This document shows, in pieces, positions 30,978 to 64,000 of a DNA stretch of 64,000 nucleotides. How positions within the stretch are numbered: position 1 is the stretch's first letter; every line of letters starts with the position of its first letter. The DNA is taken from NCBI GenBank assembly GCA_030424665.1, contig JAUHWN010000002.1:7731-71730 (forward strand). The letters run 5' to 3'. The DNA comes from Bdellovibrionia bacterium. Lineage in GTDB: Bacteria > Bdellovibrionota > Bdellovibrionia > Bdellovibrionales > JAGQZY01. A program made the translations under genes and the position numbers. Below the pieces are notes generated by a model. That model saw nothing but the letters and a program-made list of their open reading frames with translations, searched no databases and was not told the DNA's origin.

Positions 30978-31098
30978 CGGTCTTCGTCAGGCGCGCATAA
31001 AAAGAGTCATTCTAAATACCTTTTTGGTCCCTAATTTCGCTCTCAGAGGGCTTGAGCTTTGCATTTCTAGTGGACCTATTAAAAAGGCTTGGGTCAAA

Positions 31099-34000: not shown

Positions 34001-34461
34001 GAGCCTTACCACAAACGAAACTTATGGCAATCTCTAGAGTTCTCCAAGAGGCTAAAAAAGAAGATATCACGTTTAGAAAAGCGATTTTTAAGATCTATCT
34101 TATTTCTCAAGGACAATTTGAATCCTATAATTTCGAGTCAGACCAAGAGTGGGTGGCGGCTTATAATGAACAAGTTGAGATTGACGGCGGCTACCAAAAT
34201 TTAATTCAGAATATATTGACGGGAATTAATGATAGTATGGGACAACTCTACTCTGGACTCGATAAAAACGTAGACAACGAGAGCATTCAACAAATTCAAT
34301 ATTTAAATTCAAGTCCTTGGCGGACACGTCATCGAAATCTAATTCAAATCCTATTGGCTGTCGATTTAAACGCAGTCTTCGATGGAGAATTGGTATCCAT
34401 GGAATATTCGCGTCTAACTAACAATCGTTGCGAGAATCTCTTTATCGAGTCATATCTATAA
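31099..34461 (+). CDS. large (~1120 aa) membrane-associated protein with a C-terminal transglutaminase-like Cys-protease core
   Basis: The frame is open from 30883. I propose the TTG start at 31099 (LKWIKYLLQILIITLGLIFSTIGLTHA, a signal or TM segment), which avoids the overlap with pcnB. A second TM lies near WIVGVSLLLAPLSPGL. The candidate triad is Cys at 33553 (WYQCTGAAAHLA), His at 33700 (MAHSQVLV), and Asp at 33754 (IFDSTP). Spacing is typical of the transglutaminase-like superfamily. Confidence 0.6.
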   Translation: MKWIKYLLQILIITLGLIFSTIGLTHAQGEPTDAELWWDSKTIHHFLVKPSPNASGLFDFFDMLENDPKAETVLKEQLLKKYPSLLRYYQQGLNFKAEYQELVRNRIQDDHHGYHLFFTNYAIQRVLELSETIAIDRTEAPLDFRERERRALGHVSQRYGLASGITTADLRRGILENSGDLSQHYENALLTYDRLMFFYEGEKERKKRIAPLSVDEILDTLSSEIMEARLNNLRATVELAREKRAARNIHLKTLDGNLIPVHEIGTVTQIQETSSGTETHTVFSKGVSYSTDFQRRSWWGFLFGGWTNFSVPNVRENSWVRDFLLPERFKARNNKNSVLIETETDRYVISRSDYEKLLNELRLKGSDNPQAGRKKLIKRFQIEASAREALLADLFTFVVQTRFPDTNTLLTQLEQYQSKLTREQRATGLSLSLISSIEGKESYSSLGFLNGLRWWGYSFHPGNWLRREILAQDQLLPSIFKLKNGMAFKKLDKHQKKALKEEKDQVKKWRATRGLRRWRVYRWIVGVSLLLAPLSPGLIDVSNVWQNEEPAPSLNQNPMHMEESSSEHYIGSEEQKQLQGKVELFKVRDFNFVNWNRTIHIATESNLPRSAIENMDPTNEGDDVVLIAPEPLQTTPEDVFSIETIQYVVPLNGRVGIATPSGFEVSRIRVNEVAKLENESWLNTPLTINEDYKVYRIPTNGLYYLELANPNVEGIKYTVSFEKTDAPAVKIDFEFDPETLRILSLENYKLGAEKVATEIYRYSQGGYRSLSLTQLEGIYSSHSIYTFDYQSDGESQIEPSDLFQGLEQYSKDGYLWYQCTGAAAHLAESFEYAFKRQSAPYQAQQVSGYNYGERYVSSGFIVSGDMAHSQVLVSDKRNDFQYEIFDSTPYERTPPEPEPIELPRAYEQLFTRPEQPREIKESESLAQARINRALHLFDEVTIISQELNELAEKLGPENPIFNNPRELRALPQTKLMAISRVLQEAKKEDITFRKAIFKIYLISQGQFESYNFESDQEWVAAYNEQVEIDGGYQNLIQNILTGINDSMGQLYSGLDKNVDNESIQQIQYLNSSPWRTRHRNLIQILLAVDLNAVFDGELVSMEYSRLTNNRCENLFIESYL

Positions 34462-49732: not shown

Positions 49733-50857
49733 TTACTTTTTATTGTCATTGTACATAGCTGGCTTGTATCTCCATTTAATTCCCATGACGCCAAAAACAT
49801 AGGTCAGCATAATATGATTTCCCAAAGAATTGAGATGGCAGCAAGAATCTCGATAGGTAGTCTCTTTCGTATTTTTAAAGATACTCGTTAGATCTAAAAA
49901 ATATTGACTCCCTCTAAAGACAGTTCTGTAGGTTTCTCTAGCATGCACAATCTTTTTTTCAGTTGAGACTCTATATTTATTATTCTTAACCCATCCCTCT
50001 TCCTCTTCACTCAGTGGCTTAGAGTTCGAAATATAGTGACTCGGTTGAAAGAAGACGAAGTGCTTTTTATTGGCGATTTGCGAAAATCCCTTAGATCGAC
50101 TAAGAAATTTTTTTAAACGCCCATAGCTGAATCTCTCTTGCATAATACTTTCGTATTCTGATTTTGAACAATTCTGTCGAGTTGACTCAACATGATTTGA
50201 ACTCAATCTAAAATAATTATCGATAAGGCTCGGAGTCATTCGATGTACTATGAGTTTTGCAGTGTTGATATGTGATGACAACCTCACCAAAGCACCTATG
50301 CTATACTTTAAAGCGAATGTTAATAATTTATATATGCTAGAGTCCATGTTCCCAAAATTATGAGAGGCGAAGCTCCAATCACTGGGGAGGCAAGAGTAGT
50401 GAAAATCCAATGCCTCATTGTATCCCTCAATTGAAATAAACATGTCAGCTTTTTCCGTATATAATACAGTTTGAATCAACTGCTGAGGCTGCCTATATCC
50501 GGCAACAGCTAATTTAACAAATTCTACAGGTCTCCCTTGGTATGTGGCTTTTCCGGACTCATCGAGAAAGAGTGCGAATTCTTCAGCAACAGATCCGCCG
50601 ACAATGCCAATTCGAATTGCCCTACTATCTACTTTTTTAACCGACTTCTTTCGTTCGTAAGTTAGATAGGGATGATAAATTTTATCACTCCAGAAGTTAT
50701 ATGTATCATTGATACTTTTAAGCTGCTTTGGAAATTCCTTTTCCAAATTTTCGTTAAAAACATAATTAACTAAAATACTGCTAAAAGACTCCATCAAGAT
50801 GATCAAAAAAAACGAAAGAATAAAACTACGACTAAGAAATTTAAAACCCATTTTCAT
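49733..50857 (-). CDS. membrane-anchored protein with a possible SGNH/GDSL-like fold
   Basis: N-terminal TM FILSFFLIILMESF. A possible block I IGIVGGSVAEEF and block V DSCCHLNSLGNHIM (DxxH). This is a weak, motif-level call only. Confidence 0.4.
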   Translation of the reverse strand: MKMGFKFLSRSFILSFFLIILMESFSSILVNYVFNENLEKEFPKQLKSINDTYNFWSDKIYHPYLTYERKKSVKKVDSRAIRIGIVGGSVAEEFALFLDESGKATYQGRPVEFVKLAVAGYRQPQQLIQTVLYTEKADMFISIEGYNEALDFHYSCLPSDWSFASHNFGNMDSSIYKLLTFALKYSIGALVRLSSHINTAKLIVHRMTPSLIDNYFRLSSNHVESTRQNCSKSEYESIMQERFSYGRLKKFLSRSKGFSQIANKKHFVFFQPSHYISNSKPLSEEEEGWVKNNKYRVSTEKKIVHARETYRTVFRGSQYFLDLTSIFKNTKETTYRDSCCHLNSLGNHIMLTYVFGVMGIKWRYKPAMYNDNKK

Positions 50858-51231
50858 TCACCCATTCCCACTAGCAATCGATTTACCAATTCGATTCGCT
50901 TAATTAATTTGCTAACCATCGTGTGAATAGTGCTGATTCTATGACCTGTTTTTAAACAAAGAGGTGCCTTTCTCGAAACCCACGGATTTCACAGTGATTC
51001 AATGGGGTCAACGTTTTTGGGACCTGCCATTTTTCTCTATTGTTAAAATGCTGTTGTATTAATAATTACCTAATTATCTAGACTTCTTGAGTCAGATATA
51101 CCCTATTCACAATATCAAATTATCAGAATGACTCGACAGTAATAGCCACGTTCCAAAGTGAGACCTAATTCATATATACTTGAAGGTAATCGAAAGGATA
51201 AAATTTAGAGTTTTCTTCCAGATATATAAAT

Positions 51232-51915
51232 CTAAACGGCGTTCATTAGGTATTTATAAACTTCGTCGGACCGAACAAACTCGACACCAATAGCGTCATT
51301 GTTTTGTTGGTCTTTAGATTTCCAAATGATTCGAGCGGGCATCGTATATTCACGATCCACTTCACTCAGGTTAATTTGTAACCTTAAAAGCTCACCGACA
51401 TTGAGTCCATGGAAGGAACCAACTACATAAGCTCCACCCTTTGAAAGATTAAGAACCGTTCCCTCTTTTACACCATCTTGTGTATACCGCTCAATTCGCG
51501 TTTTTTGATTCGTTCGGTATCTTCTGAAGATTCTTTGCTTAACCTGATGGGCCACAATATATTTTCTAACGATTCCAACAAGATCTTTAGTGTCATAGGG
51601 CTTTTCAAGAAAAGTGAGGTTGTCCATTGTTTTAAATTCTTTAATGATCGCCGCACTCTCGGGTCGCGCCGTCAAAACAATCGGCCCCGAATAACCCATA
51701 CCACGAACCTGGGTAATAATACTTCTTTGGCTGGAATTAAAGTAATGGAGGTTAATGATTAAAACAGCAAGATCACTAGATAGGGAGTGAGATAAATTAC
51801 TGGGGCGACATGTTTGGTAGTGCATACCGTGAAACTCTGACGCTAGGCTAGTTAACTTACCCTTTAAGAGTGAGTTCTCCTCCTCAGTAATACTCGATAT
51901 CAGTATCTTCTGCAT
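51232..51915 (-). CDS. PilZ-domain protein with a degenerate N-terminal receiver-like domain
   Basis: C-terminal PilZ motifs QRIFRRYR (RxxxR) and NLSKGG (D/NxSxxG). The N-terminal ~120 aa follow a CheY-like pattern: the T (VLTARP) and K (LEKPYD) are retained, but the acidic pocket is replaced (ILISS and LIINL). Confidence 0.7.
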   Translation of the reverse strand: MQKILISSITEEENSLLKGKLTSLASEFHGMHYQTCRPSNLSHSLSSDLAVLIINLHYFNSSQRSIITQVRGMGYSGPIVLTARPESAAIIKEFKTMDNLTFLEKPYDTKDLVGIVRKYIVAHQVKQRIFRRYRTNQKTRIERYTQDGVKEGTVLNLSKGGAYVVGSFHGLNVGELLRLQINLSEVDREYTMPARIIWKSKDQQNNDAIGVEFVRSDEVYKYLMNAV

Positions 51916-52111
51916 AAATACCCCCAGATGGTGACCCTTTACTACCTATTTTGTTATCGGAGTTCTTTGAGGAGTTTTTATAAGTACCTAATATTTTTTA
52001 TCTTTTTTTGTTTTTATTGATTTTTAGTTCGACAGTTTCGGGTAAAACTCGATATCGAAATATTATGTTAATCAGGAGTTTGACAGTTTCTACAAACTTC
52101 TCGATGTCTCA

Positions 52112-52145
52112 GAAAAAAACAAAGGCAGAGTCTAGCTCTGCCTTT
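52112..52145 (-). terminator. rho-independent terminator (minus strand) of the citrate synthase gene
   Basis: A 10-bp stem AAAGGCAGAG/CTCTGCCTTT with a 5-nt loop. On the minus strand GTTTTTTTCT follows. It lies 32 nt downstream of the stop at 52177. Confidence 0.85.
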
Positions 52146-52176
52146 ATGGAATTACTGATAAAATTTCGCTGGAATA

Positions 52177-53328
52177 CTAGCGACTTTCAATCGGACTATA
52201 CTTGAGGCCTTCGTTTCCATTCCACTTACCACGTGGACGGTAAATTCGATTGTTTTGCCACTGCTCAAGAATATGGGCCAGCCAGCCAGACACTCTAGCG
52301 GCTGCAAAAATTGGAGTAAATAAATCGATTGGAATTCCAAGGCTGTAATAGGTCGTTGCCGAATAGAAGTCTACGTTTGGTAGTAGTCCCTTTTCGCTTT
52401 GAACTGTATCATCGATCACCTTAGACATATCATACCACTCAGGGTGCCCCGCTTTTTTCGTAAGGCTTTCGCTCATGCTTCTGAGAATTTTTGCACGAGG
52501 ATCACCATTTTTATAAACGCGATGACCAAAACCCATAATCTTTTCTTTATTAGCCAGAGCTTCTTTAACCCACTCAGTCGCTTTTTCAACAGTACCGATA
52601 TTAGTGAGCATTCTCATCACCTGCTCGTTAGCGCCACCGTGAAGGGGGCCTTTTAGAGCTGCGATTCCACTAACGACTGCCGAATAAACATCACTTAAAG
52701 AGGATGCAACAACACGAGCCGAAAAGGCTGAACAGTTGAGTTCGTGGTCGGCGTGAAGAATTAAACAAGTATCAAAAACTTTAACCGCTTCAGGATCAGG
52801 CTCCTGGCCGGTTAAAGTATAAAGAAAATTCCAAGCAATACTCTTTTCTGGGTTAACTGCTTTAGGGTCTTTTCCATTGCGAATACATTCGAGAGCAGAA
52901 ACAAGAAGTGGCATTTTGGCAGTGAGGCGGATCGCTTTACGCATATTCGCTTCATCTGAACTATCCTGGCTTTCTTTGTCGAAATGGCTCAACAAAGAAG
53001 TCGCAGTTTCCATCCAAGTCATTGGGTGAACACCTTGATAGGGAAGAGATTTAAGCAAAGACATAAATTCAGCTGGTAGAACACATTCTTGTCTGAGATC
53101 TTTTACGAATTGAGTAAACTCATCTTTTTTTGGAAATCTGTTATTCCACAGTAGAAATACAACTTCTTCATATGTTGAATTCGCTGCTAAATCTTCAATG
53201 GTGTAACCTCTATAACAAAGAGTTGCATCCACTATCGAAGAGATCCCTGTCGTACAGGCTACAACACCTTCAAGTCCTCTATCCAATGCGCCTTCATAGA
53301 CTTCGGCCATTTCTACATCCTTTCTCAC
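52177..53328 (-). CDS. gltA: citrate synthase (short ~380-aa type)
   Basis: Motifs LHADHELN, GPLHGGANE, GFGHRVYKNGDPRA, and NVDFYS. The start may be the ATG at 53310. Confidence 0.92.
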   Translation of the reverse strand: MRKDVEMAEVYEGALDRGLEGVVACTTGISSIVDATLCYRGYTIEDLAANSTYEEVVFLLWNNRFPKKDEFTQFVKDLRQECVLPAEFMSLLKSLPYQGVHPMTWMETATSLLSHFDKESQDSSDEANMRKAIRLTAKMPLLVSALECIRNGKDPKAVNPEKSIAWNFLYTLTGQEPDPEAVKVFDTCLILHADHELNCSAFSARVVASSLSDVYSAVVSGIAALKGPLHGGANEQVMRMLTNIGTVEKATEWVKEALANKEKIMGFGHRVYKNGDPRAKILRSMSESLTKKAGHPEWYDMSKVIDDTVQSEKGLLPNVDFYSATTYYSLGIPIDLFTPIFAAARVSGWLAHILEQWQNNRIYRPRGKWNGNEGLKYSPIESR

Positions 53329-53398
53329 TGCTTATTTCGTTTGCGATTTCTATCAGATACTAATGATCTTGTGATGTGATAACGCTTTGCTTAACCAA

Positions 53399-54307
53399 CT
53401 AATTTCTACTAGTGGCCAATTTTATCACTCTATCCTTCACTTCCATAACCACGAGGGTTTGATCCCTCTTAATCTGGTCTTTTTGACCTGTGAACTGGGA
53501 AAGCTGAAAGAAAACCTCATTGCGGATGTCGTGGACGTCCGCCTTAGGTTTAGAAAGCAATATTTGAAAGAGTCGCTCAATACCGAACGCCTCACCCGCT
53601 TGATTTTGTGCTTCAATAACACCAATCGAAGCAAACAAAAGTCGATCCCTTGGATTCAAGGTCACCTTTTTAGTTTCTGTTTCCAATTTGGAGTCCTTGG
53701 TCAGTACAGGGGTTGGTTTCAGTATTTGGCTCACTTGATTACTCGTAATGTCATGGTGAACAAGAGCTAGACCCCCAGCCTGACACACCTCGATATGAAA
53801 ATGTCTTCGATCGACAACGCCATAGAATAGGTGTGCTGAGTCATTGGGATTCATTTGCGGCCTTAAATCGTCTACCAAAGCTCGAATCAATTCATCGGGC
53901 TCTTGCCCCCGTCGCGCAGCAAGTTGTCCGGTCATCTTTAAAAGAACTGATAGAAACAAGGCACTCATACTGTAGCCAGAGGCACTGGCCATCACTATGC
54001 CAAATCGAAATTTTTCATCGTGTTCGAAAATATCGTAATAATCTCCACCAGATATGGCACTCGGTAAAAACTTCGTTGAGAATTCAAAACCGGGGATATT
54101 GGGGATTTCTTTGGGCACCATGTACTTCTGAATTTGCGCCGCCTTCTCCACCTCTTTTTCAACCTGACGCAAAAACTTTTCAATTTTTACATTGGCATCG
54201 GAAAGCTCTTTTCGAAACAGCTCGATATCACGATTTCGATCGGCGAGTTCCGCCTCTAAATCCCGTATCTTTTGCTTTAAAATTTCGGTGTCATTGTGCT
54301 CGGCCAC
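53399..54307 (-). CDS. SpoIIE/PP2C-family phosphatase domain protein with an N-terminal coiled coil
   Basis: The N-terminal ~60 aa are heptad-like (KIRDLEAELADRNRDIELFRKEL). The SpoIIE hallmark GGDYYDIF is present. The expected TDG motif reads ASIG. Confidence 0.7.
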   Translation of the reverse strand: MAEHNDTEILKQKIRDLEAELADRNRDIELFRKELSDANVKIEKFLRQVEKEVEKAAQIQKYMVPKEIPNIPGFEFSTKFLPSAISGGDYYDIFEHDEKFRFGIVMASASGYSMSALFLSVLLKMTGQLAARRGQEPDELIRALVDDLRPQMNPNDSAHLFYGVVDRRHFHIEVCQAGGLALVHHDITSNQVSQILKPTPVLTKDSKLETETKKVTLNPRDRLLFASIGVIEAQNQAGEAFGIERLFQILLSKPKADVHDIRNEVFFQLSQFTGQKDQIKRDQTLVVMEVKDRVIKLATSRN

Positions 54308-54401
54308 AATCTATTCTGCGGAAATCTGTTATTTCCTGTCAACGCTTACTGAAAACTATCTTTTTTTGTCTTGAAACAGGCCCTGGAGCTGATAATGCTG
54401 A

Positions 54402-55238
54402 ATGACTATGAACGGCTTAAGTCCAGAAATTAACCAAGAAAATCAAAGATTTGAGATTTCTATCTTTGCGCAAAGCCTTTGTGAAATCGCAGCTCACCTC
54501 AATAGTGATTGCGACCTCTCGCAATTAAAGCGCAGAGTTCAGTTTTTGATTTTTGATATCCGTTCACAAATTTCTTTGGACGAATCTTTGAGTGAAAAAG
54601 TTCACAAGCTCTCTCGACTCTTTTTCTTAGACAAGAATTACAAGATAACGAACGAGCCACTCAATGAAAACTTTAGTGTTTCGACACATTTATTGGATAA
54701 CTGTCTAACTAAAAAGACCGGAACTCTCGATATTACTTGTGGCCTTTATTTTATTCTCTGTGAGGCATTAAATATTAAAGCAGAATTTCTTAATCTCTAC
54801 CCTCCCTGCTACCTCAAGTTTTATGAGGACGGCCACACTTTCTATGTGGATCTCAGTCAAATGGGTCGAGAGCTCGAAACTGAAGATATGCTGCAAATTA
54901 TAAATAAGTACTACAGTGAATTAGACATCAACGACTCCCACCTTATGGCAGGGATGTCGTCTGCAGAATTTTTGGATCACTACATAGCGCAAATACAATC
55001 GCGATTAAAAGCGAATTCGCGATTTGATTCTTGGCGAAGCCTGCAGAACATTCGAATGACCTTAAAACCTGAGTCCCTAGGACTCATTGCTGAGCGGGCC
55101 CTGGTTCACTACGAAATGGGACTCCACAAAGAAGCCCTTTTAGATCTCAAACGCTATTTTTCTTTTGTGGATTATCAACAAGCCCCTTCACGACTTGCCC
55201 TACTTTACGAACACCTTAACTCTAAAGAACTTCAGTAA
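54402..55238 (+). CDS. SirB1-like protein (transglutaminase-like N-domain plus TPR-like C-terminus)
   Basis: The pattern CLTKKTGTLDITCGLYFILCEALNIKAEFLNLYPPCYLKF...HTFYVDL resembles the SirB1/UPF0162 N-domain. The C-terminal ALVHYEMGLHKEALLDLKRYF is TPR-like. Family-resemblance call only. Confidence 0.45.
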   Translation: MTMNGLSPEINQENQRFEISIFAQSLCEIAAHLNSDCDLSQLKRRVQFLIFDIRSQISLDESLSEKVHKLSRLFFLDKNYKITNEPLNENFSVSTHLLDNCLTKKTGTLDITCGLYFILCEALNIKAEFLNLYPPCYLKFYEDGHTFYVDLSQMGRELETEDMLQIINKYYSELDINDSHLMAGMSSAEFLDHYIAQIQSRLKANSRFDSWRSLQNIRMTLKPESLGLIAERALVHYEMGLHKEALLDLKRYFSFVDYQQAPSRLALLYEHLNSKELQ

Positions 55239-56866
55239 TTGAGCTTTTGCCCAATCCAAGTTTCAATTAAGTTTTCTAACTGTCCGATCATATCCCGAAA
55301 ACTATAGCTTAAGCGCCATAGAACTAGATTTTCGCCTTCTGACTTTTCGCTCCCTCGAAAACGTTCATGCCAATCAGTACGTAGGTCTTCGGTTAGTTTA
55401 ACTAACTCTTGAAAGGTGATTTTATACTCTCTGAGGTCGACTTCAATTTTTTCGGTCATGCTGGTGAAGATAGATTCGTAGGTCTGAAGAATTCTTTCTA
55501 AAGTCTGACTAACTTCTCCGTACCATGCAGAATCAAAATGCAGATCTTGTTCACAGATAATTTTTTTCGAACGACAGAGGTTTCTACAGGAATCGGCCAA
55601 CCCTTCTAGCATACCGGCAATGCGCATATTTTTGCTCAAGGAAACACTTTGTGAAGAATGAAGGCTTTGCTCTAAAACTCCTTGAGAAAAGCTAGTAATT
55701 TCACGCTTCACATTATCAGTGATCTTTTCATATTTCTCTACTTTGTCAAAAAGGTCCTTATGGAAATTAGGAGAGACCAAACACTCTTGGGAGAGTTCAA
55801 TCAACCGATGAATCATGGCCGCCATTTTTATAACCTCTTGATTAACCAATTCTGTGGCGAGAGAGGGCGGGAGATCACTTGGATTGCCAAAATCTTCTAA
55901 CTTTTGAACCTGCTTCTTTTTTAAGTCAGGAATGATTTTATCAAAAATATTTTCAAAAATAGGTCTCAACAAGAGAAGAACTATACTCGGAATAAGATAG
56001 GCCAGGGTCTCAACAAAAGCGACGTAAAAAATTGCTTGGGTCGATATTGAAACCTGTTCGTAAAAATAATAGCTAACGTACCTATAAAGACTGTGACTGA
56101 TCCCTGTGAAATAAAGAACCGAGAAAAAACTGAAACCAAAAACCAGAATAATGAAATTAAAGAGAAAGATTCTCTTTGTAATCCTTCGCCCTTGCCTCAA
56201 CTTAAAAAATTGGGGAATCATAGGTCCAAGGTGTGAGGCAAAAAGAGCTAAAATAATAGCCAGTTCGCTAACGACCCCAGAAGACAGTGCCGTGAGTGTA
56301 AAAACTATGCCGACTTGCTCTGATTTTGAAAAACCTGAAAGTATGAGGGCGATAAAAACCACGAGAGGTAAAAAGTAAAGCTCGTTAAAGAATTCTGCAA
56401 AAATCCCAGGCTCTAAAAGGTAGTACAAGACGATTAACACGAAACCAAAATGAAAAAAGCTAAGAAAGAGGGCTTTAAAGCGGCGACCACTCATAGAAAT
56501 TAGGCCTACTAAACCCAATGTGCAAAAAATAAGGCCCATGGAAATTCCGTAGAGTTGATAGAGCCAAAGAATGAGTACTCCACCGAGAGTGGCACCGAGT
56601 AAAAGACTCATGGCTTGTCTTGCTGAAACCACACCGGAATTAATAAAACCAAAAATCATAAGTTTGGTCTGGCTTCGCGAAAAAGCACACAAACTCATGG
56701 CCATTCCCACAAAGAGAGAGCCCAGAGCACTATCTGAAATATGCTGTACGAGCCATCGAACAAACGAAGAAAGACTCTGTTGAAAGTGAGAGGTTAGAAG
56801 GGTGCGATTAAGCCAAAAAGTCCCTAGTAAAACGATTGGTATGAGCGAGTTGTAGTAATAATCCAA
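55232..56866 (-). CDS. polytopic membrane protein with a PhoU-like C-terminal helical domain (Na/Pi cotransporter YjbB-like architecture)
   Basis: About 8 TM segments in the first ~300 aa, then a ~230-aa helical cytoplasmic domain. At 544 aa, size and layout fit the NptA/YjbB family. The canonical NIGTT motif was not seen. Confidence 0.45.
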   Translation of the reverse strand: MDYYYNSLIPIVLLGTFWLNRTLLTSHFQQSLSSFVRWLVQHISDSALGSLFVGMAMSLCAFSRSQTKLMIFGFINSGVVSARQAMSLLLGATLGGVLILWLYQLYGISMGLIFCTLGLVGLISMSGRRFKALFLSFFHFGFVLIVLYYLLEPGIFAEFFNELYFLPLVVFIALILSGFSKSEQVGIVFTLTALSSGVVSELAIILALFASHLGPMIPQFFKLRQGRRITKRIFLFNFIILVFGFSFFSVLYFTGISHSLYRYVSYYFYEQVSISTQAIFYVAFVETLAYLIPSIVLLLLRPIFENIFDKIIPDLKKKQVQKLEDFGNPSDLPPSLATELVNQEVIKMAAMIHRLIELSQECLVSPNFHKDLFDKVEKYEKITDNVKREITSFSQGVLEQSLHSSQSVSLSKNMRIAGMLEGLADSCRNLCRSKKIICEQDLHFDSAWYGEVSQTLERILQTYESIFTSMTEKIEVDLREYKITFQELVKLTEDLRTDWHERFRGSEKSEGENLVLWRLSYSFRDMIGQLENLIETWIGQKLNY

Positions 56867-56874
56867 AGTAAACT

Positions 56875-57627
56875 CTAGTTCCTCAAATACATCTCTATCT
56901 TGTGTGATTTTCCTTTAAAAATGTGCTGAGGTCCATCATTAATTTGCGGAGCATGAAGGGGTCTTTTATATAAAACTCTATTTTTACACACATCCAATGC
57001 TACAGAGAAGAGTTCGTCTTTATCAAGATCCCCGCCCACCAAATTTTTTAGAATTTGCATTTCTTTTCCCGGAAGGGCTGATTTCTTCTTTTCTACAAAC
57101 ATCGGGTCCAAATAAATGATTTCTGGGGCTTCAAAGCCCTCAAAAACTCCCTGATTTTTCCAAATCCTACAGGCTTCTTTGGCATCCGCAAAGAAGTAAT
57201 TGATTTTAGCACTGAAAGGAAAACCCTTCTCGGGCCCTCTTTGCAAGGCGATCGAGTTAAAGACAAAGAGAATGGGAGAGCGCTCAAAGGCGAGAACATT
57301 AAATCCCTTTGCGGCCATTGCCAAACTGTCAGCACCTAGACCAAAGGTGAAATCCCCAATTCGACTTTCACTTTCCAATTTGGAAATGGCTTTAATAAGT
57401 GGCTCTGTTTTATTGAGAGTTTTCAGACGATGACTAAAGCCCTTAGAGAAAAGTGGATGGCTGAGGCTTAAATTTAAACTCTTATCTATGAGTTCGAGTT
57501 GGTTTTCGGATGTTTTAATCACAAAATTGGCTTCAGCTTCTGTGTCTACAAGGAAATCTCTAATGATTGTATTATTAATGAGGGTCTCATCATAGGGAAC
57601 GTCCCCCACTATAAAAAAACGATTCAT
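56875..57627 (-). CDS. rsmJ: 16S rRNA (guanine1516-N2)-methyltransferase RsmJ-like class I SAM methyltransferase
   Basis: DFTFGLGADSLAMAAKGFNVLAFERSP (compare RsmJ DATAGLGRDAFVLA..G..V...ER.P) and IIYLDPMF (RsmJ VVYLDPMFP). The 250-aa size fits. Confidence 0.7.
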   Translation of the reverse strand: MNRFFIVGDVPYDETLINNTIIRDFLVDTEAEANFVIKTSENQLELIDKSLNLSLSHPLFSKGFSHRLKTLNKTEPLIKAISKLESESRIGDFTFGLGADSLAMAAKGFNVLAFERSPILFVFNSIALQRGPEKGFPFSAKINYFFADAKEACRIWKNQGVFEGFEAPEIIYLDPMFVEKKKSALPGKEMQILKNLVGGDLDKDELFSVALDVCKNRVLYKRPLHAPQINDGPQHIFKGKSHKIEMYLRN

Positions 57628-57646
57628 CCCGTGAGAATACCAAATA

Positions 57647-57677
57647 AATAAAAAAAACCCACCTCGTAAGGTGGGTT
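57647..57677 (-). terminator. rho-independent terminator (minus strand)
   Basis: An 8-bp stem AACCCACC/GGTGGGTT with a 6-nt loop. On the minus strand a T-rich run follows (TTTTTTTTATTTATTT). It lies 41 nt downstream of the stop at 57718. Confidence 0.85.
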
Positions 57678-57717
57678 TTCTTCGAAATACATTTAAGGAG
57701 AATAGCTAGGGCTCGAC

Positions 57718-59499
57718 TTAGAGGCTTCCTGATCTTTCAGCCGTTTCTGCTTCGACAGCCTCAAGACCTCTTTCAACATCCTCAAATAAGCCATCTTCTT
57801 CACCACCGACACCATTAGCATTCTCTTCAACTGAAAAGTTGAAGTCACTAACATCGGCAGTCACACCAACTTGAGCGATCTGGTGAATTGCATCATCGAC
57901 ACCGGCTTGCCTAGCATCAAAATCAGACATGCGCTCAGCAATGACGTCATCGTTCCGAGCTAATTCAGTAAGACGTCTTTGGTGGCTAGCGATTTGCTCT
58001 TCCACTCTCTCAATGGCATCAGATCTGTCAAATACCATGGTACGAACTCGCATGTTCGTTTCGTGGTTAAACTGCGCCACATCTTCAGTCATTCTATGGG
58101 CGAGACCGGACATATGATCAGAAGTCTCTGCCAATTCGCGAGCGATACTTCCACCAAGGGCTCTTGCCGTACTTGCAGCAACTTGAAATTCAATGGCTTC
58201 AAGATCCTCTTGAGCTGCCATAGAAAGAGATACATACATTTCGTAATCTTGTTTCATACCTTCTCTGCGCAATTTCTCTTGTTGAATATGGAGTCTTCGG
58301 CTCTGGAGTCTACGGTTGAGGAGCTCAAGAGCTTGCCCATATTGACCTGCAACTTCAAGAAGTCTTGGGTCTTGCTCGCCCTGGGGCTGAGCTGCTAATG
58401 CCGCATCAACTTTAGTTTTGGCTTCATTAACTTGGTGAATAGCAAATCGAATGGCATTTACATCGTCATTGAGTTGATGCTCAAGAATAATACTTCTTCG
58501 ATATTCTTCCTTTGATCGATCCGCAGCCTCGTCAACCTTATCAATCATTTCACCAATTTTTACTGTAATATTTTTTACGAAATCGAGAAGTGAACCGCGC
58601 TTAACTTTTAATTTATTAAAGATCTCTTCTTTAACTTCTTCAGAAGTATTTGGATCGTTGTACATAGCTTCAGCTTCGTCATCAGTCAACTCTACTTCTT
58701 GTGTACGTCTAAACATTCCTGTACCGGGGATCGTGACTCTGATTTTGCTGGCAGAATCCATGATATTTGATAGAGCATCTTGGCCACCTTGTATAAGGGA
58801 TGAAAGACCATTTCTAGCTGCCTGAACACGAGTTGGATTTAACTGAGCATTAATTGCTTCTTGCATTGCTTCTTGATTAGAAGTGTCGATATCGTTTTCT
58901 AGGACAATACTGATTTCAGCAAAGGCTCGCTTAATTGCCTTGGCATTAGCTAAATCGGCCTCTCGTGCTTCATTCAAAGTTCCTGAATTAAAACTATGGG
59001 CCTGAGAATTTCTTAAAGTATCTTTACCAATCTTAGCAATTGTACTGAGATCAGCGACATTGAAACCCTCTAGTTTTTTTCTTAAATCAGCAATTTCTTG
59101 CTCACGAGATCTTCTTAATTCCTGATCAATTTGTAAGAAAAGAGAAGAGCTATAACGTGCTTCCATACCAGCAGCGAGCTCTGAAGTATCTGTGTCATCG
59201 CCAAAATTAATATTTGTTTCCCACATTCCACCGTCTTCACCGGCTAAGCCCGCCATAAGGTCATCATTACCACTAGCATCTGCGATCAAAGCATCGAGAG
59301 CTGAACCAGGTGCAGTCGGTGCTTCTGCCGCCGGTGCTTCTGCAGTCATTTCTGCAATTACAGAATTTCTAATACCAGAAACACTTTCTTCACAAGAAAG
59401 GGTATCTGCGTGGGCAGCATGACTTGCTACCATACTGATACTTGCAACTGCGATTTTTAGAGCAAGCAAGCCTCGTAAATTTCGTCGAGTAAGTTTCAT
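57718..59499 (-). CDS. secreted coiled-coil protein (593 aa), function unknown
   Basis: Signal peptide MKLTRRNLRGLLALKIAVASISMVASHAAHA, the Ala/Pro/Glu linker AEAPAAEAPTAPGS, then long Glu/Arg/Gln/Ala-rich heptad-like sequence and an acidic C-terminus. RBS AGGAG lies upstream. Confidence 0.6.
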   Translation of the reverse strand: MKLTRRNLRGLLALKIAVASISMVASHAAHADTLSCEESVSGIRNSVIAEMTAEAPAAEAPTAPGSALDALIADASGNDDLMAGLAGEDGGMWETNINFGDDTDTSELAAGMEARYSSSLFLQIDQELRRSREQEIADLRKKLEGFNVADLSTIAKIGKDTLRNSQAHSFNSGTLNEAREADLANAKAIKRAFAEISIVLENDIDTSNQEAMQEAINAQLNPTRVQAARNGLSSLIQGGQDALSNIMDSASKIRVTIPGTGMFRRTQEVELTDDEAEAMYNDPNTSEEVKEEIFNKLKVKRGSLLDFVKNITVKIGEMIDKVDEAADRSKEEYRRSIILEHQLNDDVNAIRFAIHQVNEAKTKVDAALAAQPQGEQDPRLLEVAGQYGQALELLNRRLQSRRLHIQQEKLRREGMKQDYEMYVSLSMAAQEDLEAIEFQVAASTARALGGSIARELAETSDHMSGLAHRMTEDVAQFNHETNMRVRTMVFDRSDAIERVEEQIASHQRRLTELARNDDVIAERMSDFDARQAGVDDAIHQIAQVGVTADVSDFNFSVEENANGVGGEEDGLFEDVERGLEAVEAETAERSGSL

Positions 59500-59759
59500 T
59501 TTTTAATCTCCTTAATAGAGGTCACGAAATATTCGTAGATCTCTTTTTATTTTCGAATGTGTCTAGTATTTACACAGAACATGCCATTCAAAAGAGCCCT
59601 CAAATTAAAGAAACTTCATTTGATGACGATTTTTGGTTCCAATTTGCAACCAAAACCATAGTGCAATCCGCTATTTGCGCAGTTCTGCGCCAATCAATGT
59701 CACTCCTTTCATAAAATTTACAGCCATCTTCGAGATATTAGATTTCGTTTTTTTAGTAG

Positions 59760-59775
59760 CGGCACAAGGGCTGCA
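59760..59775 (+). promoter_or_regulatory. candidate sigma-54 (-24/-12) promoter
   Basis: CGGCACAAGGGCTGCA versus the consensus TGGCACG-N4-TTGCA. The GG and GC dinucleotides have exact consensus spacing. The element ends 45 nt upstream of the ATG at 59821. Confidence 0.4.
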
Positions 59776-59820
59776 ATTGAAGCGAGGATTCAGGATTAAG
59801 AATGAATATTAGGATATGAA

Positions 59821-62800
59821 ATGATTGCGAACTTTCTATTTAATAAACAGATTAGGATCTTTGATGTGAAACTCCTCGCTCGGAGATTTGTCTATATATA
59901 TGTCATAGCGATGCTCAGTTTTTCGCAAACTGCAATAGCCCAAGAAGACGGTGATAGTCTTTCTGACCTACTCGGTAACTTAGGGATCAATACCGAAACC
60001 TTTGGTGGCGATTCAGCTGCTGAGCCGGCGCCTTCGGATGATGAAGCTGAAACTGAGCCCGTCGAAATAGAGGCCACCCCAGAAACAAGTGAGGAAGAAC
60101 CTGCTCCGAGTCCTTCGGTATCAACTCAGGCTGGTCCTCAAGAGACCGAACTGATCACAGAACTTTCTCCAGAAGTTGAGGCTATCGAAGCTCCCGTGAT
60201 TCCACCGGCAGCTCAACAAGTTGTTCGCCAACAAGGAACGAGTACGGTTAATGGAATCACTCTTCCCCAACGCGCTCCAGAGTTTAGAGATTTTTCTTCG
60301 GCACCCTGGAGAATCGCTAATCTACCAATTCTTATTAAAATCGAGAAGGTCAATCAACAATTAGAAACAGCCCGCGCCAATGGCCAAGCCAGCGAGCAAG
60401 TGGAAGAACAGGGAAAAAGAACCCTTGATAAGCTAAAAGAGCAACTCAAGGGTGTTCTTATCGAAACATTTTTTGATGATCTCACTGAACAGGTCTACTT
60501 TGAGCAATTCACTGATCGTCCATTATATCGTGATGAGTATATTGGTTCTGTCGCTACGACTCTCAGTTCAAGACAAAACCCTTACTTCCTCGTTCATGGT
60601 GACGCTGGACAGGGAAAGACTTTAATCCCCTACGAAATTGCAAACCGAATTATAGAAGGAAATATTCCGTCTCGTCTTAGAGGAAGACGGGTTATTAGGC
60701 TCGATCTCGAAGAGTTATCTCGTGACAATCACAAATTGCCTAAACACCTGCAAAAGGGTGATGTAAATAACAGACTTATAGCTCTAACAGATGAACTCGA
60801 AGAATACCAAAACGACGTAATCATTGCTGTGGATATTAGTAACCCAGCTCTACAGAGAACCCATCTTGATAAGGTTCTCACACAAATATCTAAAAATAGA
60901 AATATACCTATTCTTTTGATAGGACAAGAAACTGACAATATTTTCGTCAAAGACGGAGTTCAACTGACTCTTGAAAGTCGCGAACAACCCCACCTCAGTA
61001 AAGATGAAGTCGTCGATATAATATTTAGACGAGTGGCCCCACTTGAGGAGGAGTATGGAATTAGTGTCAACAGAGAGGCCATTCGCGATCTTGTTAATGT
61101 CATGGAATTGAGAATTGGGGCTGAAAACTTTCCCGGTCAAGCGATCGAGATTGTTGAAAGAGCTATTCACCGTCGCTACGAAAACAGAATTAGCGGTAAA
61201 TCGGAACGCGTTCAATTCTTAGAAAGAGAAATCGCAAAGCTTCACCTAGAACTCGCTGGGCTCGACAACGAACAAGGCCCACTCGCCGATCGTGAGAGAG
61301 ATAAAATCGACGCAAAAATCTCACAAATTCGCGAAGAAATGGCCGCCGTCGAAAAATGGCTCGAAGGCTATGAAGAAGCCTTTGATTTCTTACAGCAAAA
61401 TGACGACTATATTTCAAATGCACAAAACGCTCGATCTCAGGCCCTACGAACTCGAACCCAATTAGAAATTCGCTTGGCACCTTACTGGACGCAACTGCGA
61501 TTGGGTCTCCACATGAGAATTTCTCAATTTAACGATGCAAAAGGCCTTGAATTTATTGAAAAGCTTTTTGAAAAGTCCTACGAATTAGGCATGGGTGATT
61601 CGGGGTCTCAACCTATCGAAAATGCCGAAACTAATGTTACATTACTCATGCAAGAATATCTATCAAATGAGACCTATCCCGCTGATGTTCTCGATACTAT
61701 TTATCAGCAGATTATGGGAATGCTCAATGCGATTTTTACTGAAGCCTTCAAGGGCGGATACAATGTTTCCTACCTCGGTTTGACACAAACTATTCAAGAG
61801 GCTGACTCTAAAATTGCCGAGGCTCGTGGACATTCACAAGATGTCTTCGGCCAACTTCAAGAGGCTCTAGGGGAGAACTGGCCCGAGGACATGGGTCCTA
61901 CTCTTGGGCGACAGGAGTTGATTGAAACACTAGCTCGCGCGACCAATAAAAGCTACGAGAGTCTTATTTCAGTTTTCGAAACTCCAGAAGATCGACTCAG
62001 AAGAATTGAAGAGGCCATTAGCGAAAGGTATGTTGGTCAGCCCCACTTTGTTTCGGCAATCATGGAAATGGAGAGAAATGGTAGGATGTCAGATAAAGGC
62101 CCCGTCTATTCAGCCTTTTTCCTCGGTGGCTCAACTAAGGGTAAGTCAGAACTTCCTAAAATCATTGGTAATACCCTAGATCCCGACTGTTTCTTTGACT
62201 TTCCCATTGGTCAAGCTACCTCCGAAGCCGATATCAATACTTACTTAGGTTCCCCCGATGGTTACACTGGTGGAGAGGGTGAACTCTATGAAGCTCTAGA
62301 GAAGTGCAGTGAAGGTGTGATTAACTTCGACGAGATCGATAAAGTTGATCCAGCGATACTTCAATCATTCTTTTACCCGCTTTTAAGAGAAGGAATTACG
62401 CGAAACAAAAGAGGAAAAAGACTCGACTTTAGAAACTTCAGAATTTTTATGTCGGCCAATTCACTCGAGCAACTCCTACAAATGTTTCCAGATCTCGCAG
62501 AAAGTGCTACGGCAATGTTTAACAGTGACTCGGATCCAGATAGCCTTGAAGGTCGAGAACGATACCGCGCTCTTATGTTTAGAGCCCTTCACTCTGAAAA
62601 TAGTCAGGAACAAACTGATTCATTAAGGCAAATGTTAGAAGAACTCGACAGTGGACAATACGCCCAGGCCTTTTTACGTCGTCTTAACTATATAGGATAT
62701 GCTAACAACTTTAACGATCAGGACTACAAAGACTTAGTACGTGCTATTTTTGTTCACGATCTTGGGAAAGCCTTGCGTGAATATCTAAGAGTTGACGTTC

Positions 62801-63120
62801 GACTATCTGATTCAGCGATTGAACATCTTGCAAAATTAAGTATCAACCGCACTAGAGATGCCGCCAATGTCGCTTCAGTATTAAGAAATTCTGTAGTTGG
62901 ACCCATCAGGAATCTACTTTCTCAAGGAAGTATTACGAGAAATGACATTATTGATTTCGACTTCGAGAATGGTGAATTCAAGCTCTTTAAATTAGATAAA
63001 GATTTAAATCGTATCGAAAGTGAATCTTTTGGGTCACTTGAAGCGAGAATTCCTCGTTATGAAAGTGCTGCATACGTGCCCATGACTTGTGAAGACATCA
63101 TTGGAGCACTTGCTCAATAA
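59821..63120 (+). CDS. ClpB/Hsp100-like double-AAA+ ATPase with N-terminal signal peptide/anchor and acidic linker
   Basis: D1: FLVHGDAGQGKTLIPYEIANRIIEGNIPSRLRGRRVIRLDLEEL closely parallels ClpB D1, and the Walker B reads IIAVDISN. A middle coiled coil follows (LEREIAKLHLELAGLDNE...). D2: FFLGGSTKGKSELPK, VINFDEIDKVDP, and FRIFMSANS. The N-terminus is KLLARRFVYIYVIAMLSFSQTAIAQED, followed by a ~100-aa Pro/Glu/Ala-rich segment. Confidence 0.8.
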   Translation: MIANFLFNKQIRIFDVKLLARRFVYIYVIAMLSFSQTAIAQEDGDSLSDLLGNLGINTETFGGDSAAEPAPSDDEAETEPVEIEATPETSEEEPAPSPSVSTQAGPQETELITELSPEVEAIEAPVIPPAAQQVVRQQGTSTVNGITLPQRAPEFRDFSSAPWRIANLPILIKIEKVNQQLETARANGQASEQVEEQGKRTLDKLKEQLKGVLIETFFDDLTEQVYFEQFTDRPLYRDEYIGSVATTLSSRQNPYFLVHGDAGQGKTLIPYEIANRIIEGNIPSRLRGRRVIRLDLEELSRDNHKLPKHLQKGDVNNRLIALTDELEEYQNDVIIAVDISNPALQRTHLDKVLTQISKNRNIPILLIGQETDNIFVKDGVQLTLESREQPHLSKDEVVDIIFRRVAPLEEEYGISVNREAIRDLVNVMELRIGAENFPGQAIEIVERAIHRRYENRISGKSERVQFLEREIAKLHLELAGLDNEQGPLADRERDKIDAKISQIREEMAAVEKWLEGYEEAFDFLQQNDDYISNAQNARSQALRTRTQLEIRLAPYWTQLRLGLHMRISQFNDAKGLEFIEKLFEKSYELGMGDSGSQPIENAETNVTLLMQEYLSNETYPADVLDTIYQQIMGMLNAIFTEAFKGGYNVSYLGLTQTIQEADSKIAEARGHSQDVFGQLQEALGENWPEDMGPTLGRQELIETLARATNKSYESLISVFETPEDRLRRIEEAISERYVGQPHFVSAIMEMERNGRMSDKGPVYSAFFLGGSTKGKSELPKIIGNTLDPDCFFDFPIGQATSEADINTYLGSPDGYTGGEGELYEALEKCSEGVINFDEIDKVDPAILQSFFYPLLREGITRNKRGKRLDFRNFRIFMSANSLEQLLQMFPDLAESATAMFNSDSDPDSLEGRERYRALMFRALHSENSQEQTDSLRQMLEELDSGQYAQAFLRRLNYIGYANNFNDQDYKDLVRAIFVHDLGKALREYLRVDVRLSDSAIEHLAKLSINRTRDAANVASVLRNSVVGPIRNLLSQGSITRNDIIDFDFENGEFKLFKLDKDLNRIESESFGSLEARIPRYESAAYVPMTCEDIIGALAQ

Positions 63121-63131
63121 GGTATGAATTT

Positions 63132-64000
63132 GTGAAACAAAGTATATTGTTACCATTTATTTTTACTATGTGCATCTCACCCCTGGTGTTTGCGGAAGAC
63201 GCAAGCTTGAGGGGACTTTTAGTGGGTCGTTGTGAGGCTGGCCTAGATCCTGCTCATCAGATGGCAGCCAAAATATTGCGAGACATGAGCCCCTTTGTTT
63301 CAAGCTTCAGAGTTGAGTCCTTAGAATTCCAAAGAGATAGTAGTCGAGATATCATCAGTGTCTACACCTTGACGAATGGTGGAATGACTCGCAGAGCCTT
63401 AGATCTCGACCTAGAAGGAATTCGTAAACTATCAATGAGCATCAAAGATGCCAAAGACAAAGCGATGGAGGCTATCGGGGAACTGTCTTTAGAACGACAA
63501 TTTCGCAGAATGACCGAAGGGGAATCGACTCGCGATCAAATTCGTGCACGATGGAACCGAATTCGCGGAGCCGAAGGGGAAAAGGCTCCGATGATGGAAA
63601 TCCACGCTCAACTGGTTACCCTCGGCGAAGCCATTAAAAGAATCAACGAGGACCTATCAAAATCTTACACATTAATAGATTCGTCCATGCGCATACTCAC
63701 CGAAACCATGAGTGATGTCGATAGACAAATAGCTAAAATCGACCAAGGTTTAAGAATATACAATATTATATTCTTGCAAGTTGGTCGAATGATCCTAAGA
63801 GAAGTACCCGATTTGAATATCGACCGGAAAAAATTGAGAGATCTAAGACCAAAAGATGGTGTTAACTACATCTTAGAAGTACTTCAATCCTACGAAGATT
63901 CACCTTGGAGTAAGCAAAGAATCGGTAGACTCAAGGAGATCATCGAATGGTATCAAAGGGGGTATTCCTCGACACTCAACCTAAAAGCGGGCCATCTAGA
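63132..64000 (+). CDS. secreted coiled-coil-like protein, partial (runs off the window)
   Basis: Not in the supplied ORF track. I translated the frame from the GTG at 63132 to 64000 by hand and found no stop codon. The N-terminus VKQSILLPFIFTMCISPLVFAED is signal-peptide-like. Charged helical sequence follows (EAIGELSLERQFRRMTEGE...DRQIAKIDQGLRIY). It begins 11 nt after the AAA+ stop. Confidence 0.5.
   Translation, partial: MKQSILLPFIFTMCISPLVFAEDASLRGLLVGRCEAGLDPAHQMAAKILRDMSPFVSSFRVESLEFQRDSSRDIISVYTLTNGGMTRRALDLDLEGIRKLSMSIKDAKDKAMEAIGELSLERQFRRMTEGESTRDQIRARWNRIRGAEGEKAPMMEIHAQLVTLGEAIKRINEDLSKSYTLIDSSMRILTETMSDVDRQIAKIDQGLRIYNIIFLQVGRMILREVPDLNIDRKKLRDLRPKDGVNYILEVLQSYEDSPWSKQRIGRLKEIIEWYQRGYSSTLNLKAGHL

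Follow-up and report, generated by a model that had tools for sequence, protein, structure and literature searches.

To our knowledge, the Hsp100/Clp unfoldases of bacteria are regarded as strictly cytoplasmic. In ClpB/Hsp104 (PDB 1qvr), two tandem AAA+ modules, D1 and D2, are combined with a D1 lid and a coiled-coil M-domain set in the D1 small domain; D2 belongs to the AAA_2 type, its pore loop contains GY and it has a small domain of its own, and there is no ClpP-docking loop. ClpV/TssH, likewise a cytoplasmic protein, is an Hsp100 that disassembles a polymer of helical proteins rather than aggregates. The nearest functional precedents for a targeted Clp-type ATPase are all eukaryotic, namely the torsins, CLPB/Skd3 and HSP101. 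Torsins, in the lumen of the endoplasmic reticulum, are AAA+ proteins of the Clp-D2 type that carry a targeting signal and form a single ring. Human CLPB/Skd3 is a Clp-type AAA+ protein of the mitochondrial intermembrane space (PMC9934407). [quoted passage not shown] Here we describe a locus of an uncultured Bdellovibrionia bacterium, found in a stretch of 64,000 nucleotides (nt) of contig JAUHWN010000002.1 (assembly GCA_030424665.1; "the window"), in which a divergent Hsp100 with a predicted export signal (gene B) lies between two helical proteins that are also predicted to be exported (genes A and C).

A first-pass annotation of the window had placed three adjacent genes here, each beginning with a Sec-type signal sequence: a ClpB-like ATPase with a coiled-coil protein on either side, no ClpP, DnaK/GrpE or type VI secretion system (T6SS) gene nearby, and no described system of the kind. 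Most of this description held. The open reading frame (ORF) listing of the window returned A and B at the same places (Table 1), and the frame of C, which begins with GTG at 63132, runs open as far as the window end. No ClpP, DnaK/GrpE or T6SS gene occurs within 10 kb on either side or among the ten window ORFs scanned. Full-text literature searches found no description of a bacterial system that combines an exported Hsp100 with exported helical partners. The ATPase superfamily is a known one; what is new is its architecture here, together with the location signal and the partners. For comparison we used three related loci, at 95% (L001), 63% (L002; JGI 3300036203 Ga0401697_1235) and 37% identity (L004).

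Judged by its profile and structure-database matches, B is a genuine but very divergent Hsp100, so that the Hsp100/ClpB homology named in the first pass is borne out, at a long distance. Pfam identifies an AAA domain at amino acids (aa) 257-359 (D1), AAA_lid_9 at aa 394-487, AAA_2 at aa 762-883 (D2, 5e-12) and a weak ClpB_D2-small, and the features of Hsp100/Clp class I (two tandem AAA+ modules, a D1 lid, an AAA_2-type D2 and D2-small) are all present. The best NCBIfam match by E-value is to ClpV1 (TIGR03345, E 9.7e-38), with 130 bits against a cut-off of 885. ClpB (TIGR03346, E ~1e-37) scores 126 bits against an equivalog cut-off of 1232, and PRK10865 scores 90 bits against 1417. Among PDB chains the best match is Thermus thermophilus ClpB (1qvr), in two aligned stretches; the alignment begins at ClpB residue 149, after the N-domain, and extends into motif 1 of the M-domain. 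The PTEX entries 6e10 and 6e11 are also among the matches, and HSP101 lies no nearer to B than ordinary ClpB.

B shares with ClpB/Hsp104 all of the elements listed above, from the tandem modules, lid and M-domain to the GY pore loop and the lack of a ClpP-docking loop. Unlike ClpB/Hsp104, it has a signal peptide and an acidic linker in place of Clp_N (PF02861, for which Pfam gave no match in B), a D1 without the Walker B Glu and the pore-loop Tyr, an M-domain about twice as long, a changed sensor-2 GAR, a family-specific C-tail, three conserved Cys and no DnaK nearby. The enlarged M-domain-like insert, of about 230 aa, has heptad-like segments at aa 447-537 and 622-685 around and within it. 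Three closer assignments were tested. B falls short of the ClpB/Hsp104 subfamily itself, since Clp_N is missing, D1 is not competent and the score lies below the cut-off; in its M-domain alone it conforms. ClpV/TssH was rejected on the score of 130 bits against 885 and the absence of a T6SS neighbourhood; the likeness to ClpV is that of the best NCBIfam match and of an Hsp100 acting on a helical-protein polymer, and B has no ClpV N-domain. The ClpP-coupled ClpA/ClpC/ClpE were rejected for lack of a conserved docking loop and of a nearby clpP: an IGF/IGL loop is not conserved in B, as its [IL]G[FLM] tripeptides are confined to the M-region and do not recur in the 37% orthologue.

The state of the motor motifs was read from an alignment of B, the 34-37%-identical orthologue (L004) and canonical ClpB. 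In D1, Walker A is kept (GDAGQGKT in the window protein, GASGRGKS in the orthologue), the Walker B Glu is lost (VDIS or LDVT, as against IDEI in canonical ClpB) and the pore-loop Tyr is lost, KYRGEFE of ClpB having become HLQKGDVNN. D2 retains Walker A (GGSTKGKS), Walker B (FDEID or LDEIG), the GY of the pore loop (GYTG), the sensor-1 Asn and the Arg finger, in FLRRLN or FLRRVN, and its sensor-2 GAR is changed, to DAAN. The same pattern of loss in D1 and retention in D2 is found in both proteins. Lacking the catalytic Glu and the pore-loop Tyr, D1 should do no more than bind nucleotide and keep the ring assembled, and with its Walker motifs, pore-loop Tyr, sensor-1 and Arg finger in place D2 should be the sole threading motor. 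We therefore read B as a one-motor Hsp100 with a new N-terminus, in which D1 probably serves nucleotide binding and assembly only and D2 would do the threading. Long-range conservation follows the same division: compared with the 37% relative, D2 is the most conserved region (45-48% identity, against 27% for D1). The C-terminal (D2-small) domain has the highest identity of any region in the 63% relative (87%, the rest about 65%) and in the 37% relative, at 45%, is second only to the large domain of D2 (48%).

Signal peptides were judged by heuristic scans and by their conservation in orthologues, and export is a prediction throughout. A, B and C each have one hydrophobic segment, at the N-terminus, and no later transmembrane-like segment; in all three the n-region is positively charged, the h-region is 13-16 aa long and small residues occupy positions -3 and -1, as in substrates of Sec and signal peptidase I. 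The first-pass claim of Sec-type signals on all three genes is borne out by these scans and, for B, by its orthologues. In the 63% orthologue the signal reads MNAKFLINRSLKAINLKEVFRYIIYIYVSLSFAFAQSTLA, with the predicted cleavage before QEDDG (...AQSTLA/QEDDG), and in the 37% orthologue MKMLLLIFIFIGSTSMA, before SS. All of the B orthologues have an N-in charge bias, h-regions of 13-15 aa and a -3/-1 site after the h-region, and h-regions of this length fit a cleavable signal rather than a transmembrane anchor. With charges of +5/-1 before the h-region and -4 to -5 behind it, both the window protein and the 63% orthologue are predicted to lie N-in/C-out. The ORF of B offers no start earlier than its ATG, 6 nt upstream of which lies an AGGA ribosome-binding site, and in the 63% orthologue no internal Met is available as an alternative, signal-less start. 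The first pass had named an ordinary cytoplasmic ClpB with a mis-called start as one finding that would overturn its proposal; comparison of the orthologues supports instead an Hsp100 derivative with a conserved export signal. About 19 of the 49 window ORFs (~39%) pass the same crude signal-peptide test, and three adjacent exported genes are therefore unremarkable; the unusual item is a signal on an Hsp100.

Two further observations concern these N-termini. A short common motif (ED..SL[RS].LL.G) follows directly on the predicted cleavage site in the mature B and C proteins: EDDGNSLRALLGGIG in B of L002 (224-270), EDGDSLSDLLGNLG in B of the window (59941-59990) and EDASLRGLLVGRCEAG in C of the window (63195-63240). 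It may be a secondary sorting or recognition signal, the sequences being too few for statistics. Several unrelated Clp-like AAA+ proteins among the distant matches (P0069, P0105, P0109, P0133 and P0144; loci L005-L009) also begin with a signal-peptide-like sequence. Some of this set have two or three tandem D2-type modules, and P0133 is encoded on a conjugative element, adjoining MobA and a TraG-type coupling protein. Exported Clp-type ATPases may be an overlooked, scattered phenomenon.

The cysteines of these proteins are few and conserved. B has exactly three (790, 829 and 1090), each retained as far as the 37% orthologue; two are set on either side of the D2 pore loop, immediately before strands beta2 and beta3, and one is in the C-tail. 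A single Cys, close to the mature N-terminus, is present in mature A, in mature C and in the protein encoded next to B in the 37% relative (see below): C36 in A, C34 in C, where it is part of the conserved motif GLLVGRC, and the Cys of GLLGERLGC in the third. A small number of Cys, every one of them conserved, is expected for proteins that fold in an oxidising compartment. The positions suggest an intramolecular disulfide in D2 of B and intermolecular links among the partners.

A and C are helical orphans. In A, an acidic linker rich in Ala, Pro and Glu extends to about aa 105 and is followed by long helices (aa 106-543), with a charged, predicted beta-hairpin at 252-272, and by an acidic tail; C is all-helical, with long helices at 152-224 and 261-364. 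The heptad-like character noticed in the first pass is well above that of shuffled sequences, 28-mers of this type covering 54% of A (14% in shuffles) and 33% of C (11%), and the secondary structure in AlphaFold2 models is almost entirely helix, with helices of 70-100 aa. The two are not paralogues of each other. Neither matches Pfam, NCBIfam, PADLOC, PHROGs or PDB sequences (for PDB chains at E<=1, in a set that includes the PTEX entries 6e10/6e11); a match to some well-characterised, unrelated family, which had been foreseen as one outcome that would undo the first proposal, was thus absent from all five. The folds suggested for them in the first pass found no backing. PspA/IM30, Snf7, TelA and apolipoprotein gave no Pfam match at E<=1 and no PDB sequence match, and no PspA/Vipp1/ESCRT-III, TelA or apolipoprotein fold is among the Foldseek top 50, which is a weak negative in view of the low-confidence models (predicted local distance difference test, pLDDT, of 56 for C and 50 for A). 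What Foldseek does return for these models is generic long-helix proteins (the Rad50 coiled coil, chemoreceptors, tektin-like ciliary proteins, BAR domains and alpha-pore-forming toxins) at a TM-score of about 0.5 or less; we treated these matches as non-evidence.

Alpha-pore-forming toxins of the ClyA family recur in the Foldseek lists of both A and C. The family (XaxAB/PaxB, AhlBC, MakA/E) resembles A and C in being exported and all-helical, of 350-450 aa, with long helical hairpins and in sets of two or three. The individual matches, to MakA, XaxB, AhlC, PaxB and AhlB, are weak (E 1.4e-3 to 1.5, TM-score 0.18-0.51), and, unlike these toxins, A and C have no hydrophobic head or tongue, nor any other hydrophobic segment beyond the signal peptide in hydrophobicity scans. 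We know of no alpha-pore-forming toxin that works with an AAA+ protein. The likeness, drawn from low-confidence models, is a lead and not a finding.

All three genes are under strong purifying selection. Against the 95% relative, omega is 0.08 for A (0.036 in its helical part), 0.054 for B and 0.06 for C, similar to the neighbouring housekeeping genes (0.05-0.17). The D1 module of B, although catalytically "dead", has an omega of 0.006.

The family is very small. Above the generic Clp background, a word-indexed search of 5.8 billion clusters yielded no relatives of B but those at 95% and 63%, and an exhaustive HMMER search of 1.84 billion cluster representatives (~15 billion proteins) added a single relative, at 37%. 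In all, five loci of the B family were found: three close genomes, the 63% relative and the 37% relative. One relative was found for A (95%, protein), and for C only the window genome's own full-length copy and a 60% orthologue. Two scans of metagenome contigs, one by C-terminal alignment and one full-length, and two scans of viral contigs gave no further family members, and a GTDB scan found only the 95% metagenome-assembled genome; the sole named host is a metagenome-assembled genome of Bdellovibrionia.

In L002, B is followed by a 433-aa orthologue of C (60% identity) and then by the same UbiA gene as in the 95% relative; the contig ends before the position expected for A. In L004 (locus L004:2796-7236), 20-30 nt after B comes the gene for a helical protein of 457 aa whose N-terminus carries a hydrophobic segment; this protein resembles C in position, size, helical and heptad character, and in a GLL..R..C motif that holds its only Cys. 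The shared neighbourhood supposed in the first pass therefore stands in part: the pairing of B with a C-like gene is kept at 63% and 37% identity, and the adjacency of A is seen only in two near-identical genomes. The conserved core is B plus C. Membership of A is plausible but weaker, because it is based on that adjacency and on shared features. The GC content of the A-B-C module equals that of its flanks and synteny with UbiA persists at 63% identity, so the module is vertically inherited and not mobile; an origin from a mobile element or phage was rejected on these two grounds and for want of viral matches.

Tentatively, we propose that B, C and perhaps A form an extracytoplasmic, D2-driven AAA+ remodelling machine, possibly acting in a prey compartment. 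The module would be a lineage-restricted, vertically inherited one, in which B, derived from ClpB/Hsp104, is exported through Sec by means of its cleavable signal peptide and assembles into a hexamer through a D1 that binds nucleotide and does not hydrolyse it, leaving the D2 ring as the only motor to thread polypeptide. C, as its adaptor or as its substrate, would be a dedicated partner of B. The assembly would probably also include A, the other helical protein predicted to be exported, whose gene is read divergently. ATP is not known to occur in the bacterial periplasm. Since the motor motifs are under selection, the site of action would be an ATP-containing space outside the producer cytoplasm, such as the prey periplasm, the bdelloplast or the prey cytoplasm; the host class is known for periplasmic predators, which makes a prey compartment the obvious candidate. 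There B might unfold or disassemble assemblies of helical proteins, or prey proteins. Torsins and CLPB/Skd3 resemble B in having targeting signals, in residing in compartments topologically equivalent to the periplasm and in relying on a single ring; they differ in being eukaryotic and single-module, in that their compartments contain ATP, and in showing no specific sequence affinity to B. The envelope or prey-directed remodelling machine suggested in the first pass remains the best frame for what we infer here.

Several points weigh against this proposal. An exported, active ATPase needs a special explanation when the periplasm has no known ATP, the export of B is judged by heuristics only, and the predatory lifestyle is assumed from taxonomy. 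The structure models of A and C (pLDDT 50-56) gave no informative fold match. In the 37% relative, the protein downstream of B shows no sequence homology to C by BLASTP or hhalign, and no homologue of A is found within 15 kb. B itself is damaged in two of the five loci. In L002 (104-2736) it lacks about 236 aa, corresponding to ~689-924 of the window protein and thus to the whole nucleotide-binding core of D2 including Walker A and B, and it is frameshifted into pieces of 730 and 161 aa. In the third close genome (an NCBI contig of 8,286 bp) it is split into 588 aa (P0215) and 509 aa (P0217) by a stop within the M-domain, at codons 589-590 (...KSYE / MGDTG...). Either kind of damage may stem from assembly error, or the gene may be dispensable or decaying.

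Other readings share parts of this evidence. A and/or C could form a coiled-coil filament, tether or bundle in the producer's own envelope, with B disassembling it and no prey involved, in the way that NSF acts on SNAREs, ClpV on VipA/B and Vps4 on ESCRT-III. The long, heptad-rich helices of A and C, the tight coupling of the B and C genes, a single conserved Cys that could link subunits covalently, and the separate promoter and strong terminator of A, as for an abundant structural protein, would all suit such a recycler. It meets the same ATP problem without an external source to solve it, however, PspA/IM30, Snf7 and TelA are matched neither in Pfam or PDB nor by any fold in the Foldseek top 50, and A is absent from the 37% relative; we consider it unlikely. 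The ATP problem disappears if B stays in the cytoplasm or is tethered on the cytoplasmic side, as a divergent but conventional ClpB-like chaperone whose N-terminus is no export signal and whose neighbours are there by coincidence. An intact D2 argues for an ATP-rich location, and at the rate of signal-like N-termini in this window (~39% of ORFs) signal-bearing neighbours are common. Nevertheless, at 13-15 aa the h-regions fall short of a transmembrane helix, the charge bias predicts N-in/C-out in both the window and L002 proteins, a -3/-1 site is present in all orthologues, and the N-terminus is conserved as protein sequence with no alternative Met in L002. The replacement of the Clp N-domain by an acidic, Pro-rich linker typical of envelope proteins, and the restriction to three Cys, all conserved, also point away from the cytoplasm, and this makes a cytoplasmic B quite unlikely.

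If B is exported and yet no longer an ATPase, it could be an ATP-independent periplasmic holdase, or a ring-shaped scaffold for A and C. The dead D1, the change of the D2 sensor-2 from GAR to DAAN and the missing D2 core of L002 all fit, whereas the retention of the D2 motor motifs at 34-37% identity, in the region most conserved at long range, would be unexpected in a pseudo-enzyme, and we rate this reading as very unlikely. A more specific version of prey-directed action takes PTEX as its model: at the cytoplasmic membrane of the prey, C and/or A would make up a pore or adaptor on which B docks by way of its conserved C-terminal domain; driven by ATP from the prey, B would thread proteins, among them those of the predator, across that membrane or extract them from it. 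The parallel lies in a ClpB-type ATPase with a secretory signal and two signal-bearing orphan partners rich in helix or disorder (PMC7355975), in an analogous topology (a parasite in its vacuole, a predator in the prey periplasm), in the place of the B C-terminal domain among the most conserved regions, and in a host class that contains periplasmic predators. The differences are that PTEX is eukaryotic, that HSP101 keeps its N-domain and two active rings and is no nearer to B than ordinary ClpB is, that A and C have neither detectable similarity to EXP2 or PTEX150 nor, in scans for hydrophobic segments, a membrane segment beyond the signal peptide, and that predation by the host is unproven. 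Such a translocon is most improbable on these data; if true, it would bear on the way in which periplasmic predators bring proteins into the cytoplasm of the prey or take material out of it.

The remodelling machine that we favour would, if export is true, come as a surprise for AAA+ and envelope biology. A conserved Sec signal, a competent D2 and exported partners imply ATP-driven protein remodelling outside the producer cytoplasm, most plausibly in prey, or else an AAA+ ring put to an ATP-independent use; either answer matters to those who study AAA+ proteins, the envelope or bacterial predation. In practice the finding carries limited weight, as the family is very rare and known only from uncultured organisms, and every functional statement made here is inferred from sequence.

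The arrangement of the genes and of the signals around them is given in Table 1. The GTG of C lies 11 nt after the stop of B, and the two genes are almost certainly co-transcribed and probably translationally coupled. The full-length protein in the NCBI record of the same genome (P0063) is identical to the window over the 289 aa visible. The window was extended through the 95% relative, in which C (432 aa) is followed by convergent genes for UbiA and polyprenyl synthase and by men genes (menaquinone). Because C ends at 432 aa and these convergent menaquinone genes lie beyond it, the cluster ends at C, contrary to the expectation in the first-pass annotation that it would continue. The other neighbours are housekeeping genes as well, for an S-adenosylmethionine-dependent methyltransferase and a Na/Pi cotransporter. 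A terminator-like hairpin follows A, which is therefore a monocistronic unit. The palindrome in the middle of the divergent region between A and B is a candidate operator. No Rfam family matched anywhere in the window.

Table 1. Coordinates of the genes, protein regions and DNA signals of the locus; positions are those of the window, and a slash marks the predicted cleavage point.
Feature	Position	Strand	Description
Gene A	57718-59499	minus	593 aa; ORF listing of window
Gene A signal peptide			aa 1-31; predicted cleavage SHAAHA/DT
Intrinsic-terminator-like hairpin	57650..57683	minus	15-pair stem and T run; 35 nt after gene A stop
Divergent A/B intergenic region	59500-59820	.	321 bp
Near-perfect palindrome, mid A/B divergent promoter region	59631-59655		12-nt arms; TTTTGGTTCCAA-T-TTGCAACCAAAA
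Sigma-70-like site	59717-59744	plus	not above chance
Gene B	59821-63120	plus	1099 aa; ORF listing of window
Gene B signal peptide	59821..59940	plus	predicted; aa 1-40; n-region +5/-1; h-region FVYIYVIAMLSFS; QTAIA/QE
Gene B acidic Pro/Glu-rich disordered linker	59941..60315	plus	aa 41-165 (~125 aa); replaces Clp N-domain; omega 0.24
Gene B D1 AAA+ module	60511..61230	plus	aa ~231-470; omega 0.006
Gene B enlarged M-domain-like coiled-coil insertion	61231..61920	plus	aa ~471-700; ~120 aa in ClpB
Gene B D2 AAA+ motor, small domain and family-specific C-tail	62086..63117	plus	aa 756-1099
Gene C	63132-64000, cut by window end	plus	GTG start; 432 aa in full (P0063)
Gene C signal peptide			predicted; aa 1-21; PLVFA/ED

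The A/B intergenic region is 97% identical to that of the 95% relative. We rejected the idea that it is a special regulatory element, since other intergenic regions of this genome pair are 98-100% identical. Over positions 50000-64000 of the window, most of the alignable intergenic regions are 97-100% identical in the two genomes and the coding DNA 89-96% (synonymous divergence, dS, ~0.23-0.58), so that non-coding DNA is more conserved than synonymous sites; the exceptions are the 3' flank of A (91%) and an insertion site at 50858-51231.

Several minor observations concern other parts of the window. An ORF of 1192 aa at 30883-34461 has no Pfam match at E<=1e-5. A 374-aa ORF with a signal-like N-terminus (49733-50857, minus strand) sits between a Ddl-like gene and a PilZ gene (region 49733-51231); these two genes overlap directly in the 95% relative, and the ORF is therefore an insertion or deletion difference between the genomes. 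Several predicted lipoproteins (12310-13143 and 13279-14049) carry an unusual ...FQNC lipobox (SFQNCA and LFQNCS). The same lipobox is present in L004:1735-2010 (IFQNCE), which suggests that the 37% relative belongs to the same broad lineage.

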